From assembly GCA_045612285.1 (NCBI GenBank), contig JAZKYS010000019.1:1447-65446 (forward strand): DNA of 64,000 bases, read 5' to 3'. Below, piece after piece: positions 3,040 to 64,000 of the stretch (its first letter is position 1; each line of letters opens with the position of its first letter). Source of the stretch: Elusimicrobiaceae bacterium. GTDB taxonomy: Bacteria; Elusimicrobiota; Elusimicrobia; Elusimicrobiales; Elusimicrobiaceae. The notes under the pieces are model-generated. The model was not told where the DNA came from and searched no databases. It saw only the letters and a list, made by a program, of their open reading frames with translations. The translations under genes were made by a program, and so were the position numbers.

Positions 3040-3084
3040 ATCAACACGCATTTAAAATACCTTATTATTTCAAATAGTAAAATA

Positions 3085-3093
3085 TGATATACT
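3085..3093 (+). promoter_or_regulatory. Extended -10 promoter element (TGaTATACT) driving leader RNA copy A
   Basis: The same TGnTATACT lies at the same distance from the conserved 5' hairpin in all three leader copies. It resembles the AAATTT(A/G)nTATAAT motif upstream of smc, the activase and clpC. Confidence 0.55.
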
Positions 3094-3098
3094 AAAAA

Positions 3099-3340
3099 TG
3101 TAAGTATTTTTTTACTTACATAAAAATTTAATCTGTTTTTGGATGCCGAAAGGCTGCTTTTACATAAGTAAAAGTGTATTCAAATCCCAAAACAGCTGTT
3201 ATAGGTGTATAACACAAAGTCTAATTAACTTTTGTGATATACGCTGAATGTTTGCATATGCAAACTACGGCTGTTATATTTAGGGCATTGAATACACTTA
3301 AATATAAAAGCCGTTTTTTATGCTCCGAAAACCTGTTTAA
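3099..3340 (+). ncRNA. Structured 5' leader RNA, copy A (candidate cis-regulatory RNA of pilin-like gene)
   Basis: 5' hairpin 3100-3106/3113-3119, then invariant TAAAAATTTAATCTGTTTTTGGA at 3121-3143. Hairpins at 3145-3154, 3157-3174, 3205-3242 and 3250-3265. Long-range pair 3174-3183/3288-3297, helix 3267-3281/3300-3314, closing pair 3133-3143/3324-3335. All helices covary with copies B and C. Confidence 0.7.
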
Positions 3341-3354
3341 AAGGAGTATAAAAA

Positions 3355-3873
3355 ATGAATATAGTTTCAAAAAAAACAAAAGGCTTTACCTTAATTGAAT
3401 TATTAGTTGTAGTTTTGATTATCGGTATTTTGGCGGCTATTGCCGTGCCGCAATATGAAAAAGCTGTTTTAAATAGCAGATTAACACAATATATTGTCTA
3501 TATGGATGCCTTAAGAAAAGGTGCTGACCTTTATTATTTAGCTAATGGTAAAATGACTAATGATGTCCGGGATCTTGATATAGATGTTGAACCCAATGCG
3601 ATAACATTTAAAACTTCAACTATATCCCCCCTCGCAACGGGTGTTTTTTTTAAAGATGGACTTGAGTGTATGGTCCACTTTCAAGACATAGCTTGCCTTG
3701 GAAAAGATTTCTATTTACTATCTAGTCATTCCTGGAGAAATACTCCTTTTCAAGGAATTATTTGTTTTGGAAAAAATAACAAAAAAGCAGAAGAAATTTG
3801 TAAATCAAAATCCAATGGGATATCTGTTTATTATCACGAAAATTTCCAATCAAATGGATATAGGCTACAATAA
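3355..3873 (+). CDS. Prepilin-type N-terminal cleavage/methylation domain protein (type IV pilin/pseudopilin-like)
   Basis: KG|[24 protein letters not shown] motif, SD AAGGAG at 3341-3346, and a divergent Cys-containing C-terminal domain. Confidence 0.85.
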   Translation: MNIVSKKTKGFTLIELLVVVLIIGILAAIAVPQYEKAVLNSRLTQYIVYMDALRKGADLYYLANGKMTNDVRDLDIDVEPNAITFKTSTISPLATGVFFKDGLECMVHFQDIACLGKDFYLLSSHSWRNTPFQGIICFGKNNKKAEEICKSKSNGISVYYHENFQSNGYRLQ

Positions 3874-13450: not shown

Positions 13451-13637
13451 ATATAAAAATATTCTCTAATCTTATTTTATCATTTTTGGCTTTTACTTGC
13501 TAGATTTTATTTCATCTCATCATCCTACAAAAATGTTATAGCTTTTACTTTGTAAAAGTAATTTATTTACTACTGTTTTTACAAATATCTTATTTTTTCA
13601 GTCGGTAATATTTTTATTTATCGTCGTAGAAATTGAC

Positions 13638-13663
13638 TTGATTTTCAAAAAAAAAAATAAAAT
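13638..13663 (+). promoter_or_regulatory. Candidate promoter with A11 tract in spacer (TTGATT-ttc-A11-TAAAAT)
   Basis: -35-like TTGATT at 13638-13643, A11 at 13647-13657, -10-like TAAAAT at 13658-13663. Near-identical block at 32121-32147 upstream of another pilin-like gene. Confidence 0.5.
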
Positions 13664-13683
13664 ATTGGTAGCTGAAGAAATAC

Positions 13684-13724
13684 CCCACCCTTTATCCCTC
13701 CCCTCTTTAAAAAAGAAGGGAGGG
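13684..13724 (+). repeat. CCCTCCC/GGGAGGG hairpin module (copy 1) in 5' UTR of pilin-like gene
   Basis: CCCACCC 13684-13690 and CCCTCCC 13696-13702 are two candidate 5' arms for GGGAGGG 13718-13724. Homologous modules at 43558-43614 and 56736-56792. Confidence 0.6.
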
Positions 13725-13751
13725 AAATATAAGGAAAAGGAGAAAATAAAA

Positions 13752-14243
13752 ATGAAAACAAATAAAGGGTTTACTTTAATTGAATTATTAGTAGTAGTCT
13801 TAATTATAGGTATTTTAGCAGCTATTGCCCTACCGAAATATCAAGTAGCTGTAGTTAAAAGCCGTTATTCCACAATGAAAGAATTAGCTAATTCTATTAA
13901 AGAAGCACAAGAAGTATATTATTTAGCCCACGGAGAATATGCCGCAACTTTGCCAGAATTAGATATTACACTTGGCGATAGCACAACTGATAAACAAGAA
14001 TACCCTTGGGGTTATTGTGCCATTGAAAAAAACAATGCTCTTGTTTATTGTGCAAACACTCAAATAGGTATGGAATATCAAATAATTTTTAATAATCACC
14101 CAGCTACTTCAATAGCAGGGAAGCGCCAATGCGTAGCTTACGGCAATGATTTATCTGCCCCTAATCATAGTATTTGTAAACAAGAAACAGGCTTAGTTAA
14201 TCCAACAAGTCCAGGTCAAAAACACAGCATTTATAATTACTAA
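13752..14243 (+). CDS. Prepilin-type N-terminal cleavage/methylation domain protein (pilin-like)
   Basis: Start moved to ATG 13752 (MKTNKG|[24 protein letters not shown]) behind SD AAGGAAAAGGAG. The TTG 13638 extension in the ORF track covers the promoter region. Confidence 0.85.
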
Positions 14244-14262: not shown

Positions 14263-14294
14263 AAAAAACCCCTGCCGTAAAAGCAGGGGTTTTT
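14263..14294. terminator. Bidirectional intrinsic terminator
   Basis: AAAAAA-CCCCTGC-cgtaaaa-GCAGGGG-TTTTT between convergent genes. Confidence 0.8.
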
Positions 14295-23044: not shown

Positions 23045-23485
23045 TTATTTATAAACCCAAGCCTTGTATCCAGTACCATTAATAGGAGTAGAACCTGTTT
23101 CTTGGGCACATATTTTTTCGCCCATTTCGTCAATGGATATGCATTTTCTGCGTTTATTTGAATATTCAATCTGATATTGAAGATAGGGATTTGAAGAAAT
23201 AAAGCATCCTATTTGGGCTTGTCCTTCCAACCAACAATTCCCCCCTTCATAATAGCCACTATTTGGAATTGCTATATCTAAATCTTTATAATTTGTTGCG
23301 TATTTTCCATTTGCCAGATAATAAACATCTTGGGCGGAAACAACACTTTCCGCGAACATTTTTAACTGCACATATCTGCTTTTAGCAACTGCCATTTGAT
23401 ATTTTGGAACAGCAATAGCCGCCAAAATACCGATTATTAAAACAACGACTAATAACTCTATTAGCGTGAACGCGCGGTTTTTCAT
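23045..23485 (-). CDS. Prepilin-type N-terminal cleavage/methylation domain protein (pilin-like)
   Basis: MKNRA|[24 protein letters not shown] with SD AAGAGG. Confidence 0.85.
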   Translation of the reverse strand: MKNRAFTLIELLVVVLIIGILAAIAVPKYQMAVAKSRYVQLKMFAESVVSAQDVYYLANGKYATNYKDLDIAIPNSGYYEGGNCWLEGQAQIGCFISSNPYLQYQIEYSNKRRKCISIDEMGEKICAQETGSTPINGTGYKAWVYK

Positions 23486-23522: not shown

Positions 23523-23550
23523 AGTTTATCAAAAAAAAAAAAATACACAA
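23523..23550 (-). promoter_or_regulatory. Candidate promoter with T13 tract in spacer (TTGTGT-a-T13-ga-TAAACT on minus strand)
   Basis: -35-like at 23545-23550, homopolymer at 23531-23543, -10-like at 23523-23528, spacer 16 nt. About 38 nt upstream of the pilin-like start. Homologous block at 32032-32058. Confidence 0.5.
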
Positions 23551-31354: not shown

Positions 31355-31891
31355 TTATTGAAATTCATATAATGGATATCCGCTATATCTTTCTTCCTCT
31401 ATCAAATGTCCTAATGATTGACAAATTTTTGTACCTAATTGACTAGAATTTTGTCCCATACAACGAAATTTACCCGGTCTAGACCATGAAATATAAGACT
31501 GATATTTACTTCCAAGTCCTATCTGGAAATCTCTATAAGGTTTACATGTAGAAAAATCATCACTACGACCAGGGCAATAACTAGCCAATAATACAAAGTT
31601 TGAAACAGACCATTCTATAAAAAAATCTCCGCATTTAAATGTTGCGCCTGAAATACGAGAACAAGCAGAGGGTAATTCTATATCTAAATCAGATAAATCA
31701 TTTGTATAACTTCCATTTGCTAAATAAAAAAGTTCCTCTGCTTGCACTATATTAGCCATCAATGGCAATATTGTGGAAACTTCCGATTTTACAGCTGCTA
31801 CACGATATTTGGGAACGGCAATTGCTACCAAAATACCAATAATTAAAACTACGACTAACAACTCTATAAGCGTGAAGGCACGGTTTTTCAT
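31355..31891 (-). CDS. Prepilin-type N-terminal cleavage/methylation domain protein (pilin-like)
   Basis: MKNRA|[24 protein letters not shown] with SD AAGAGG. Confidence 0.85.
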   Translation of the reverse strand: MKNRAFTLIELLVVVLIIGILVAIAVPKYRVAAVKSEVSTILPLMANIVQAEELFYLANGSYTNDLSDLDIELPSACSRISGATFKCGDFFIEWSVSNFVLLASYCPGRSDDFSTCKPYRDFQIGLGSKYQSYISWSRPGKFRCMGQNSSQLGTKICQSLGHLIEEERYSGYPLYEFQ

Positions 31892-32031: not shown

Positions 32032-32058
32032 AGTTTATCAAAAAAAAAAAATACGCAA
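32032..32058 (-). promoter_or_regulatory. Candidate promoter with T12 tract in spacer (TTGCGT-a-T12-ga-TAAACT on minus strand)
   Basis: -35-like at 32053-32058, homopolymer at 32040-32051, -10-like at 32032-32037, spacer 15 nt. Homologous to the 23523-23550 block. Confidence 0.45.
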
Positions 32059-32120
32059 GCGCCCTGCTAAGACGAAGAAAAAAGCAAAAAAAGAAGAAAT
32101 ATCGTCGTAAAACAAAAAAC

Positions 32121-32147
32121 TTGATTTTCAAAAAAAAAAAAATAAAA
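32121..32147 (+). promoter_or_regulatory. Candidate promoter with A12 tract in spacer (TTGATT-ttc-A12-TAAAAT)
   Basis: TTGATT at 32121-32126, A12 at 32130-32141, TAAAAT at 32142-32147. The upstream ATCGTCGTA block is shared with 13621-13663. Confidence 0.5.
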
Positions 32148-32190
32148 TTTAATTTGTTAAGTCAATAAAACAATAGGAGAAAAAACATTT

Positions 32191-32709
32191 ATGAAATCAA
32201 ATAAAGGGTTTACACTTATAGAATTATTAGTCGTTGTCTTAATTATCGGTATTTTGGCGGCTATTGCTGTTCCGCAATATCAAATAGCTGTTGAAAAATC
32301 TAGATATTCCACCATAAAAGCCAAAACAAGAGCTATCGGTGAAGCCGTTAACAGATATTATCTTACAAAAGGTTCTTACCCCAGAGAATTTGGAGAGCTT
32401 GATATTTCTTTGTCAGATATTATAGACGCACCAAGAGTGTCCGAGGAAGCAGGCGGTTTTAGTGTTACATTTAAAACATCCAAAGGATATTCTGAGTGCT
32501 ACATATGGAGATATAATATTTTTTCTCAACTTTATTGTAGTGTTAATAACAATAAAATGCTCTTTTATTTTAATCACAAAACTATTGCTCCCAGTTTATG
32601 TAGTACTAAGAAAGACTATGAAATCGGACACAAAGTTTGCCAACAGGAAACAGGTAAAACAAAAGAAGAAGGTGAGGAATCCGGTAATTATTTTATTTAT
32701 GCTTATTAA
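32191..32709 (+). CDS. Prepilin-type N-terminal cleavage/methylation domain protein (pilin-like)
   Basis: MKSNKG|[24 protein letters not shown] with SD AGGAGA. Confidence 0.85.
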   Translation: MKSNKGFTLIELLVVVLIIGILAAIAVPQYQIAVEKSRYSTIKAKTRAIGEAVNRYYLTKGSYPREFGELDISLSDIIDAPRVSEEAGGFSVTFKTSKGYSECYIWRYNIFSQLYCSVNNNKMLFYFNHKTIAPSLCSTKKDYEIGHKVCQQETGKTKEEGEESGNYFIYAY

Positions 32710-37630: not shown

Positions 37631-37660
37631 ATGTTTTTTAAAGAGAAAAAATGGAATAAA

Positions 37661-38025
37661 CAAAGCAAATGATTTTGCAAGGATTTTTGTGGAAATTTTA
37701 ATTAACTTTTTCTTTTAGAAAAAAGCGGTTCTTTCAAACGAGGTATACCAAGAGGGGGCGGCAGCCCCGAGTATCCGAAGGCTTTAAAAAATAAAAACTA
37801 GTCCAAAAGCCGAAGTAAAAGTTTTGCGAGGATTTTGCGTTTAGAGAACGAAACAAATTTTATCTAAACAGAGCATATAGTTTTACGAGTATTTTGAGGT
37901 TAGTTTTAATTAATTTTTTCTAAAGAAAAAATGTTTTAAAAAATGAGGTATACCTAGAGCGGACGGCAGTCCCGCGTATCCGAAATTTTTTAAAAATTAA
38001 AACTAGCCCAAAAGACGAAGTAAAA
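37661..38025 (+). repeat. Rod-like intergenic repeat elements, locus R2 (two tandem full units plus a partial unit)
   Basis: Unit 1 is 37661-37820 and unit 2 is 37866-38025, with about 75% identity. GGCA-loop hairpins at 37740-37779 and 37945-37984. Unit 2 outer helix 37901-37911/37995-38005 (11/11). Box 37881-37896 is complementary to tail 38009-38025. Confidence 0.75.
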
Positions 38026-42695: not shown

Positions 42696-42704
42696 TGATA
42701 TACT
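42696..42704 (+). promoter_or_regulatory. Extended -10 promoter element (TGaTATACT) driving leader RNA copy B
   Basis: Same motif and spacing to the 5' hairpin as copies A and C. Confidence 0.55.
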
Positions 42705-42709
42705 AAAAT

Positions 42710-42975
42710 TGTAAGTAGTTTTTACTTACATAAAAATTTAATCTGTTTTTGGAACCTTGTAAAAACAAGGATAGCTTTTGAGAAATCAAAAGCCATAGCG
42801 AAGTCCAAGAACAGCTCGTTATTAGGCACAGGACAAACGGCTTAATTACCCGCTTGTTTTGTGCCGAGTGTTTGCCGTTCTTTTAGAACGGCAAACTACG
42901 GCTGTTATATTTTTTGGTCACTTCGCTAGGCTAAAATATAGCAGCCGTCTTTCATAAGTTCCAAAAACAGTAAGA
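42710..42975 (+). ncRNA. Structured 5' leader RNA, copy B (candidate cis-regulatory RNA of pilin-like gene)
   Basis: 5' hairpin 42711-42729, invariant 23-mer 42731-42753. Hairpins 42755-42770, 42774-42793, 42825-42865 and 42870-42896. Long-range pair 42793-42804/42920-42930, helix 42898-42913/42933-42948, and 12/12 closing helix 42743-42754/42959-42970. Confidence 0.75.
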
Positions 42976-42984
42976 GAGGAATTT

Positions 42985-43518
42985 ATGAAAAACAAAAAAG
43001 GCTTTACTCTTATTGAAATACTTGTTGTTGTTTTAATTATCGGTATTTTAGCAGCGATAGCTGTGCCGCAATATCAAAAATCAGTATGGAAAAGTAGGGC
43101 TACAGGTATGCTCTTTAATTTAAAATCACTACATGAAGCAGTTAAAGTTTATCAATTAGCAAATAGCGCAAATCCATCAAATATAAATAAATTAGATATT
43201 TCCCTTAATAATTATAAACAAGCTTGTGTAAACACAGGACCGAGTTTTACCGAATCATCTTGTAAGGCAGATAAATATTCAAATTTATTTCTAAACATAA
43301 ATACAAACACTGGAAAAGGAACCGGAGAAGTTTTTTCACAATTTAATATAGGTCCTTATAAAAGTGGCGGTTTTTCAATAGCAGGTAATACTGTTATATG
43401 TTGGGAATACCCCTCATATATTAGTTTGAAAGGAGATTTTTGTAAAAAAATAATGGGTTGCCAACCAAGATCAGGCATAACAACTGAAGGCAGGCAATTC
43501 CTCTGTCCAAATTTATAA
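42985..43518 (+). CDS. Prepilin-type N-terminal cleavage/methylation domain protein (pilin-like)
   Basis: MKNKKG|[24 protein letters not shown] with SD AGAGAGGA. Confidence 0.85.
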   Translation: MKNKKGFTLIEILVVVLIIGILAAIAVPQYQKSVWKSRATGMLFNLKSLHEAVKVYQLANSANPSNINKLDISLNNYKQACVNTGPSFTESSCKADKYSNLFLNINTNTGKGTGEVFSQFNIGPYKSGGFSIAGNTVICWEYPSYISLKGDFCKKIMGCQPRSGITTEGRQFLCPNL

Positions 43519-43557
43519 AATAAAGACCTTCGGGAATGACAATTTTATCTTTTACAA

Positions 43558-43614
43558 CCCACCCTTTTATCACTTCCATAATTTTTTTGCTAACGCAAAA
43601 AAGTCAAGGGTGGG
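43558..43614 (+). repeat. CCCACCC/GGGTGGG hairpin module (copy 2)
   Basis: CCCACCCTT 43558-43566 pairs with AAGGGTGGG 43606-43614. Inner hairpin TTTTTTGC-taac-GCAAAAAA at 43583-43602. Covaries with the CCCTCCC/GGGAGGG copies. Confidence 0.6.
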
Positions 43615-43641
43615 AAATAATAGGAAATTTAAAAAACTAGC

Positions 43642-43778
43642 GACACAGAGCATATAGTTTTACAAGTATTTTGCGTTTAGAGTAGGCGCAACCGAGGAAG
43701 AGTATACTGTGAAAGGCCGGCAGGCCGAAGTATCCGACCGAGGTTGCAACGCACTATAAACGCAAAAGACGAAGTAAA
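43642..43778 (+). repeat. Rod-like intergenic repeat element, locus R4 (single alpha-type unit)
   Basis: Box at 43658-43672. Outer helix TATTTTGCGTTT 43667-43678 / AAACGCAAAAGA 43758-43769. Hairpin GGCC-GGCA-GGCC within 43700-43737. Tail ...GACGAAGTAAA ends 2 nt before the tolB stop codon. Confidence 0.7.
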
Positions 43779-43780
43779 TA

Positions 43781-63781: not shown

Positions 63782-63790
63782 TGTTATACT
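63782..63790 (+). promoter_or_regulatory. Extended -10 promoter element (TGtTATACT) driving leader RNA copy C
   Basis: Same motif and spacing as copies A and B. Begins 4 nt after the macro-domain stop codon. Confidence 0.5.
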
Positions 63791-63795
63791 ATAAG

Positions 63796-64000
63796 TGTAA
63801 GTAGCAATACTTACCTAAAAATTTAATCTGTTTTTGGAACCTTGTTTGTAGAACAAGGAGAACTTTTGAGAAATCAAAAGTGCTATGAGGTCCGAAAGCA
63901 GTCGTATTATAAATATACAGAAAAGTATATTTTATTCTGCCGTCTTTTTAGGCGGCAGATACGGCTGTTTATATTTGGGTTCCCTCATAGCACTCAAATA
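63796..64000 (+). ncRNA. Structured 5' leader RNA, copy C (3' end truncated by window)
   Basis: 5' hairpin 63797-63803/63808-63814 with GCAA loop, invariant 23-mer 63816-63838. Hairpins 63840-63858, 63862-63881, 63909-63935 and 63937-63958. Long-range pair 63880-63890/63983-63993. Confidence 0.7.

Follow-up and report, generated by a model that had tools for sequence, protein, structure and literature searches.

The DNA analysed here, a stretch of 64,000 nt with a G+C content of 36% (hereafter the window), carries a solitary type IV pilin-like gene at 13752-14243, preceded by the promoter-like arrangement TTGATT-TTC-A11-TAAAAT, the A11 run of which lies 94 nt 5′ of the gene. The elements of the locus are as follows:

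13620-13628, forward strand: ATCGTCGTA block upstream of the −35-like hexamer
13633-13638, forward strand: TTGACT, overlapping the start of TTGATT
13638-13643, forward strand: −35-like hexamer TTGATT, part of an invariant core CTTGATTTTC
13647-13657, forward strand: A11 run, preceded by TTC, with which it makes up a spacer of 14 nt
13658-13663, forward strand: −10-like hexamer TAAAAT, conserved across the promoter family
13696-13724, forward strand: stable hairpin (CCCTCCCCTCTT..AAGAAGGGAGGG) in the predicted 5′ UTR of the 13752 gene
13752-14243, forward strand: type IV pilin-like gene of 163 aa, intact and full length
14264-14294, forward strand: intrinsic-terminator-like hairpin with a T run, 3′ of the pilin gene

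The original prediction had reported the two hexamers, the A11 run between them and the 14-nt spacer, all of which reappear at the same positions when the sequence is re-read. It had also placed the run inside the promoter spacer of a pilin-like gene; the hexamers on either side of the run recur in conserved form across 68 promoters (described below), which upholds this placement, and on such comparative evidence the promoter-spacer reading of the A11 run is well supported. Judged by a sigma-70 criterion of hexamers 16–18 nt apart, the copy at 13638 falls outside the accepted range with its 14 nt, and it was not called by a generic promoter scan. The 5′ UTR of the gene folds with a predicted energy of −24.8 kcal/mol (z = −2.6), and its hairpin at 13696-13724 sits on an insertion that the orthologous locus L015 does not have. 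An inverted repeat similar to this hairpin, CCCACCCTT..AAGGGTGGG, is also found 3′ of a pilin gene at 43549-43623.

Six complete proteins encoded in the window have the prepilin cleavage/methylation N-terminus, with a short basic leader (as in MKTNKG|; general pattern M..K(G/A)), G at −1, F at +1, E at +5 and a hydrophobic helix. All six match PF07963 (30.9–38.3 bits, cut-off 21.2) and TIGR02532 (29.9–36 bits, cut-off 16.3). None can be assigned to a specific pilin or pseudopilin type, as every equivalog model searched (GspG, PilA, ComGC and others) stayed below its cut-off for these six proteins, the GspG model for instance reaching 38–53 bits against a cut-off of 88.85.

The A11 run is one of four A or T runs of at least 11 nt in the 64-kb window (A11, A13, T12 and T13), all of them uninterrupted. 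All four lie between a TTGNNN and a TAnnnT hexamer, 45–148 nt 5′ of the start codon of a pilin-like gene, and together they precede four of the six complete pilin-like genes. The remaining three runs and their surroundings are:

23045-23485, reverse strand: type IV pilin-like gene of 146 aa
23523-23550, reverse strand: poly-T promoter TTGTGT-A-T13-GA-TAAACT, run at 23531-23543, 16-nt spacer
31355-31891, reverse strand: type IV pilin-like gene of 178 aa, starting MKNRAFTLIELL
32032-32058, reverse strand: poly-T promoter TTGCGT-A-T12-GA-TAAACT, run at 32040-32051, 15-nt spacer, TG at −15/−14
32101-32109, forward strand: second copy of the ATCGTCGTA block, upstream of the 32121 promoter
32121-32148, forward strand: poly-A promoter TTGATT-TTC-A13-TAAAAT (TTGATT 32121-32126, A13 32130-32142, TAAAAT 32143-32148), 16-nt spacer
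32191-32709, forward strand: type IV pilin-like gene of 172 aa

The promoters of the 31891 and 32191 genes are arranged back to back, and 78 nt separate their runs. A near-identical second block in front of another pilin-like gene had been predicted and is indeed present, but its run is A13 rather than A12 and it ends at 32148 rather than 32147. This copy is called by the generic promoter scan, with 9/12 matches and a 16-nt spacer. The other two tracts had escaped the prediction; they are poly-T on the gene strand and stand before two more pilin-like genes.

The six complete pilin-like genes thus fall into three promoter classes. Class A (13752 and 32191, forward strand) has the form ATCGTCGTA..CTTGATTTTC-An-TAAAAT. 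Class B (23485 and 31891, reverse strand) reads TTG(T/C)GT-A-T13/T12-GA-TAAACT on the gene strand, and the T and G before its −10 form an extended −10. Reading class B instead as TTGATA-N16, with the −35 taken from the end of the run and the −10 further downstream, was rejected, as it does not work for P0080 and in P0100 would leave no space for a 5′ UTR. Class C (3355 and 42985, forward strand; a third leader, at 63828, is truncated by the window end) lacks a long run; its extended −10, TGATATACT or TGTTATACT, leads into a structured leader of ∼230 nt. A sigma-54 pilin promoter was considered and set aside as unlikely, sigma-54 being absent from E. minutum (PMC3162934).

The class C leaders were noted in their own right. 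Within the window they lie on the forward strand at 3085-3354, 42696-42984 and 63782-64000 (the last cut off by the window end), and others occur in L096, L220, L226, L236 and L239. They follow an extended −10 (TGATATACT, TGTTATACT or TTGCTATAAT) and begin ..AAATTTAATCTGTTTTTGGA. RNAalifold on six sequences predicts four helices with compensatory changes in 21 of the 42 pairs, and the leader matches no Rfam family; it is a candidate for a new cis-regulatory RNA. The class C pilin gene 3355-3873 also has an A8 run (3369-3376) within its leader-peptide codons (MNIVSKKTKG), which might act as a translational switch, since a change of one base shifts the frame. The positional counterpart of the class C gene 42985-43518 in the related genome (L093, ∼3080-3700) appears to have a class A promoter with A13; one class of promoter may be swapped for another at a given position in the genome. 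A repeated intergenic element is present as two tandem copies of ∼205 nt at 37657-38025 and again at 43650-43780, with the core GAGGTATACC..GGCGGCAGCC..GTATCCGAAG; the element matches no Rfam family, and copies with 80–93% identity in JAZKZM01, a related metagenome-assembled genome, adjoin pilin genes.

A first-order Markov model of the window expects 7.2 A/T runs of at least 11 nt, against the four observed. This null was dropped as a test of run counts, since it yields too many long runs: the run lengths actually present are bimodal in distribution, with 16 runs of 8 nt, none of 9 or 10, a single run each of 11 and 12, and two of 13. The run count by itself is therefore not decisive, and the non-random part is the location of the runs and their conservation. 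By our own rough estimate, which takes ∼1,200 nt of such upstream DNA in the 64 kb, the chance of all four runs falling upstream of pilin-like genes is ∼1e-7.

Related DNA was scanned, with one genome per species, for CTTGATTTTCAAAAA-N0-12-ATAAAAT, a pattern that permits interruptions of the run past its fifth A. The Elusimicrobiaceae metagenome-assembled genome JAZKZM01 contains ∼40 copies of CTTGATTTTC-An-TAAAAT, and nearly all of those with sufficient downstream DNA stand before a pilin-like gene. Their runs range from A12 to A15 and are chiefly A13, and none of the ∼40 is interrupted even though the pattern would have matched such copies. JAZKZM01 shares ∼86–88% nucleotide identity with the window in syntenic stretches, which indicates that the window belongs to another, related species of the Elusimicrobiaceae. 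When metagenomes were scanned with CTTGATTTTC+A10, most matches were unrelated, largely eukaryote-like or AT-rich; twelve matches from rumen and gut samples are the pilin promoter, ten of them with A13, one with A11 and one with A14. Class B was found before 25 further pilin-like genes, in the flanks of fetched loci and at loci reached via pilin homologues. Since class A was collected by its own core, the conservation of that core is partly built in; class B never served as a search pattern in gathering these loci and is as a whole unaffected by this bias, as are the run lengths and the downstream genes.

A uniform census of 68 distinct promoters, taken from the window and from related DNA of the Elusimicrobiaceae, gives a spacer of 16 nt in 55, 14 nt in three, 15 nt in six, 17 nt in three and 18 nt in one, so that 13 of 68 (19%) are off the norm at the consensus level. 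The earlier judgement that 14 nt is too short agrees with this norm. Wherever the spacer departs from 16 nt, it is the run that has changed and not the flanks. The flanks themselves differ between lineages, with longer flanks accompanying shorter runs of 11, 12 or 13 nt, and each combination found (TTC+A13; A+T13+GA; TG/CG+T12+GA; AATC+A11+C; TG+T12+GG) adds up to 16. From this compensation we take the conserved quantity to be the spacing of the hexamers, with a pure run as the filling. Individual copies have between 23 and 188 nt separating the run from the start codon. The run promoter is a family-wide design before most pilin-like genes of gut Elusimicrobiaceae and not a local oddity, a point that the original prediction had also missed.

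Several further features of the related loci were observed. The ATCGTCGTA block at 13620-13628 is the right half of a variably conserved region, which in relatives is often an inverted repeat such as TCAGACGGAAAA..TTTTCCGTCTGA. Five rumen or gut class A loci (L138, L152, L195, L214 and L058) carry this as a 12-bp inverted repeat, TCAGACGGAAAA-N8-TTTTCCGTCTGA, immediately 5′ of GAAATTGA-CTTGATTTTC, and ATCGTCGTAGAAATTGA in the window is similar to its right half; the repeat could be an operator or an insulator. At the P0005 locus (L106-L113) an A12 run lies ∼65-53 nt before the start codon, outside any spacer of the downstream gene, and its 3′ end adjoins a 17-nt segment leading up to the TATAAT hexamer of an extended −10 promoter (TTGCTATAAT). 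On the opposite strand this run resembles a decayed class B promoter, and in two more divergent assemblies a C-to-A change beside it produces A13. About half of the promoter matches in JAZKZM01 (L002-L094) are less than 200 nt from a contig end, which shows the genome to be fragmented at its pilin loci, and pilin-like genes are probably undercounted in metagenome-assembled genomes of this kind.

To follow the runs between genomes we compared orthologous promoters. The closest homologue of the 13752 pilin is just 68% identical, so for this locus the comparison is with the positional orthologue L015 (likewise located after tRNA-Gln), and the sets of strains represent other pilins. L015 has A13 where the window has A11. 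The orthologue of the 31891 promoter, L193, has T13 where the window has T12, with a 5′ UTR that is ∼95% identical (by eye, from the alignment). The 32191 promoter has A13 in all three genomes (the window, L059 and L193). As both orthologues are at the norm length, the two off-norm promoters of the window are contractions from the norm, and the addition of two A would return the A11 copy to the normal geometry of 16 nt seen with the A13 of L015.

Near-identical strains were compared at seven tracts in 33 assemblies with the same pilin protein, and the consensus run length is unchanged in 32 of the 33, at loci that are all at the 16-nt norm and in assemblies that give the majority allele only, so that minority variants are invisible. 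The lone variant, L101, has A10 where six others have A12, with identical flanks. Contig breaks at the runs were considered as a sign of heterogeneity among reads and set aside, since the repeated promoter and N-terminal coding sequence explain them equally well.

These observations suggest a model in which the A11 run would be the body of the −35/−10 spacer of a sigma-70-type promoter driving 13752-14243. In the family as a whole the spacer consists almost entirely of a pure A run (class A) or T run (class B), with the total held at 16 nt. A homopolymer of 12–13 nt would then be the one part of the promoter that readily changes length, via slipped-strand mispairing, and its length would set the promoter geometry independently for each paralogue. 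Under this model the 16-nt copies (A13 and T13) should be active, the 14-nt copy at 13638 is predicted to be weak or off, and the 15-nt T12 copy at 31891 is predicted to be reduced, weak or off; regaining one or two bases would restore the off-norm copies. With dozens of paralogues the outcome would be a population-level mix of pilin-like proteins, following the contingency-locus logic of M. hyorhinis vlp.

We hold the reading as a whole (a sigma-70-type promoter with a 16-nt optimum, slippage setting expression gene by gene, and an A11 copy that is weak or off) with moderate confidence. Run length probably sets the expression of each gene; the 16-nt norm speaks indirectly for control by length, as does the behaviour of the generic scan, which accepts spacers of 16–18 nt and calls the A13 but not the A11 copy. 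We infer that the hexamers are a working promoter, that its activity is tied to spacer length, and that length changes are frequent and reversible enough for phase variation; slippage-driven phase or rheostat control is plausible. A/T runs are less prone to slip than G/C runs. Class B would be expected to depend less on its −35 and on spacer length, as its TG at −15/−14 provides an extended −10.

The same data can be read as a fixed structural element, in which the promoters need the rigidity of an A-tract, or a protein recognizing the tract, the 16 nt are under purifying selection, and the off-norm copies are rare, slightly harmful or silencing mutations with no adaptive switching. The exact 16-nt spacing of 55 of the 68 promoters fits such an element, as do the constancy of run length in 32 of 33 close-strain assemblies and the complete lack of interrupted runs in a search that permitted them; at P0005, moreover, the A12 run takes the −35 position of an extended −10 promoter and not a spacer. 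Against it, the length of the run is not itself conserved, being 11, 12 or 13 nt according to the flanks, and what is kept is the total spacing; both poly-A and poly-T orientations are in use. The share of off-norm promoters is high for ordinary promoters, and the genes behind the off-norm promoters are intact. A spacer of mixed A and T would be a safer way to maintain the spacing, yet the purity of the run is kept, which is supporting evidence in favour of mutability. On balance we regard a fixed element as rather unlikely, though it is the alternative to be taken most seriously.

The three other alternatives concern the A11 copy itself. Its true length could be A13, miscalled in the contig: the window comes from an assembled contig of ∼65.5 kb, homopolymers of 11–13 nt are error-prone, and contigs of related assemblies frequently end at these runs or close to them (L219, L113, L232). 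The same contig nevertheless reads A13, T13 and T12 at the other runs, no frameshift at an A8 or T8 run interrupts the long ORFs of the window, and off-norm lengths recur in independent short-read assemblies, so that we think an artefact improbable. It would be more improbable still that the working −35 is TTGACT (13633-13638), which the original prediction offered as an alternative and which would give a 19-nt spacer and require the run to shrink rather than grow. TTGACT is nearer to consensus than TTGATT, but its presence depends on the variable bases in front of CTTGATTTTC ending in ..TTGA by chance, as they do not in most members; with a normal A13 its spacer would be 21 nt, and the element that is invariant in the family is CTTGATTTTC, which contains TTGATT. 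Finally, the run could be coding, as an ORF of 201 aa (13638-14243) is open from the TTG at 13638 and in frame with the pilin, so that a change in length would be a translational frameshift. To this we give next to no credence. All homologues start MK..(K/N)(G/A)FTLIELL, so placed that the glycine of the cleavage site follows after 4–10 residues, and an AGGAG ribosome-binding site precedes that start; a prepilin leader of 38 residues would be unusual, the gap between run and start codon ranges over 23–188 nt, and at 32191 the TTG and the ATG are 70 nt apart and out of frame.

Returning to length control by slippage, its extension to whole genomes is more tentative. It is possible, although we would not rely on it, that gut Elusimicrobiaceae possess a genome-wide contingency system of ∼40–50 scattered pilin-like genes per genome, each with a hypermutable A/T-run spacer, such that cells express different subsets and the population resamples its pilus or surface composition against host immunity or phages. 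Members of the Elusimicrobiaceae are common in the gut of humans, livestock and insects but have received very little study, and the E. minutum genome paper reportedly describes an unexplained excess of pilin-like genes. A slippage-prone spacer common to most of these genes would offer a testable reason for that excess, namely stochastic, gene-by-gene control of surface filaments. Spacer length would serve as a sequence signature, with 16 nt likely active, from which the pilin genes that are probably on could be inferred in any metagenome. A practical consequence is that the promoters and the conserved N-terminal coding sequence of the pilins break assemblies. Should the contingency system prove true, it would be the largest repeat-promoter phase-variable set for one protein family known to us, and the first reported in the phylum Elusimicrobiota.

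Full-text literature searches found no description of run-spacer pilin promoters in Elusimicrobia, and the nearest parallels come from other bacteria. In Mycoplasma hyorhinis the poly-A run of the vlp genes is said to lie within the −35/−10 spacer, as reportedly described by Yogev et al. in 1991 and by Citti and Wise in 1995. In both systems each gene of a surface-protein family comes with its own version of a conserved promoter whose spacer is a pure poly-A run, so that run length would set expression one gene at a time. These variable lipoprotein genes undergo combinatorial phase variation (Rosengarten and Wise 1991, as cited in PMC11868660). They differ in being clustered lipoprotein genes, in a genome without mismatch repair, for which switching has been measured, whereas the Elusimicrobiaceae genes are dozens of scattered type IV pilin-like genes with an A/T run of 11–13 nt in a 16-nt spacer and a predicted switching.

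The fim2, fim3 and fimX genes of Bordetella pertussis reportedly have a poly-C run between an activator site and the −10, a finding attributed to Willems et al. in 1990. They too are paralogous fimbrial subunit genes with one homopolymer per promoter and independent variation; unlike the present family they use poly-C, depend on BvgA, encode chaperone-usher fimbriae and number three rather than dozens. In Haemophilus influenzae, TA repeats occupy the shared divergent promoter of hifA and hifB (van Ham et al. 1993, as cited in PMC11868660). There, too, the length of a simple-repeat spacer controls pilus genes, and the genes are divergent as in the 31891/32191 arrangement of the window; however, one dinucleotide repeat serves two overlapping promoters, whereas in the window each promoter has its own homopolymer, ∼78 nt apart. 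The T-tract of Helicobacter pylori sabA is said to act as a rheostat, reportedly from work by Aberg et al. in 2014. Promoter homopolymers in Neisseria meningitidis include the poly-G of porA, the poly-C of opc and the poly-A of nspA (PMC6389960, PMC5320596). In sabA and the neisserial genes the length of a homopolymer in or beside the core promoter likewise governs graded or on/off transcription of surface proteins, but these are single loci of pathogens with documented length variation among strains, and no promoter is shared by a gene family. The M. hyorhinis vlp and Bordetella fim genes are the known systems closest to the control proposed here. The principle is already known; the novelty lies in the phylum, in type IV pilin-like proteins as the target and in the scale, since one genome contains dozens of such genes.
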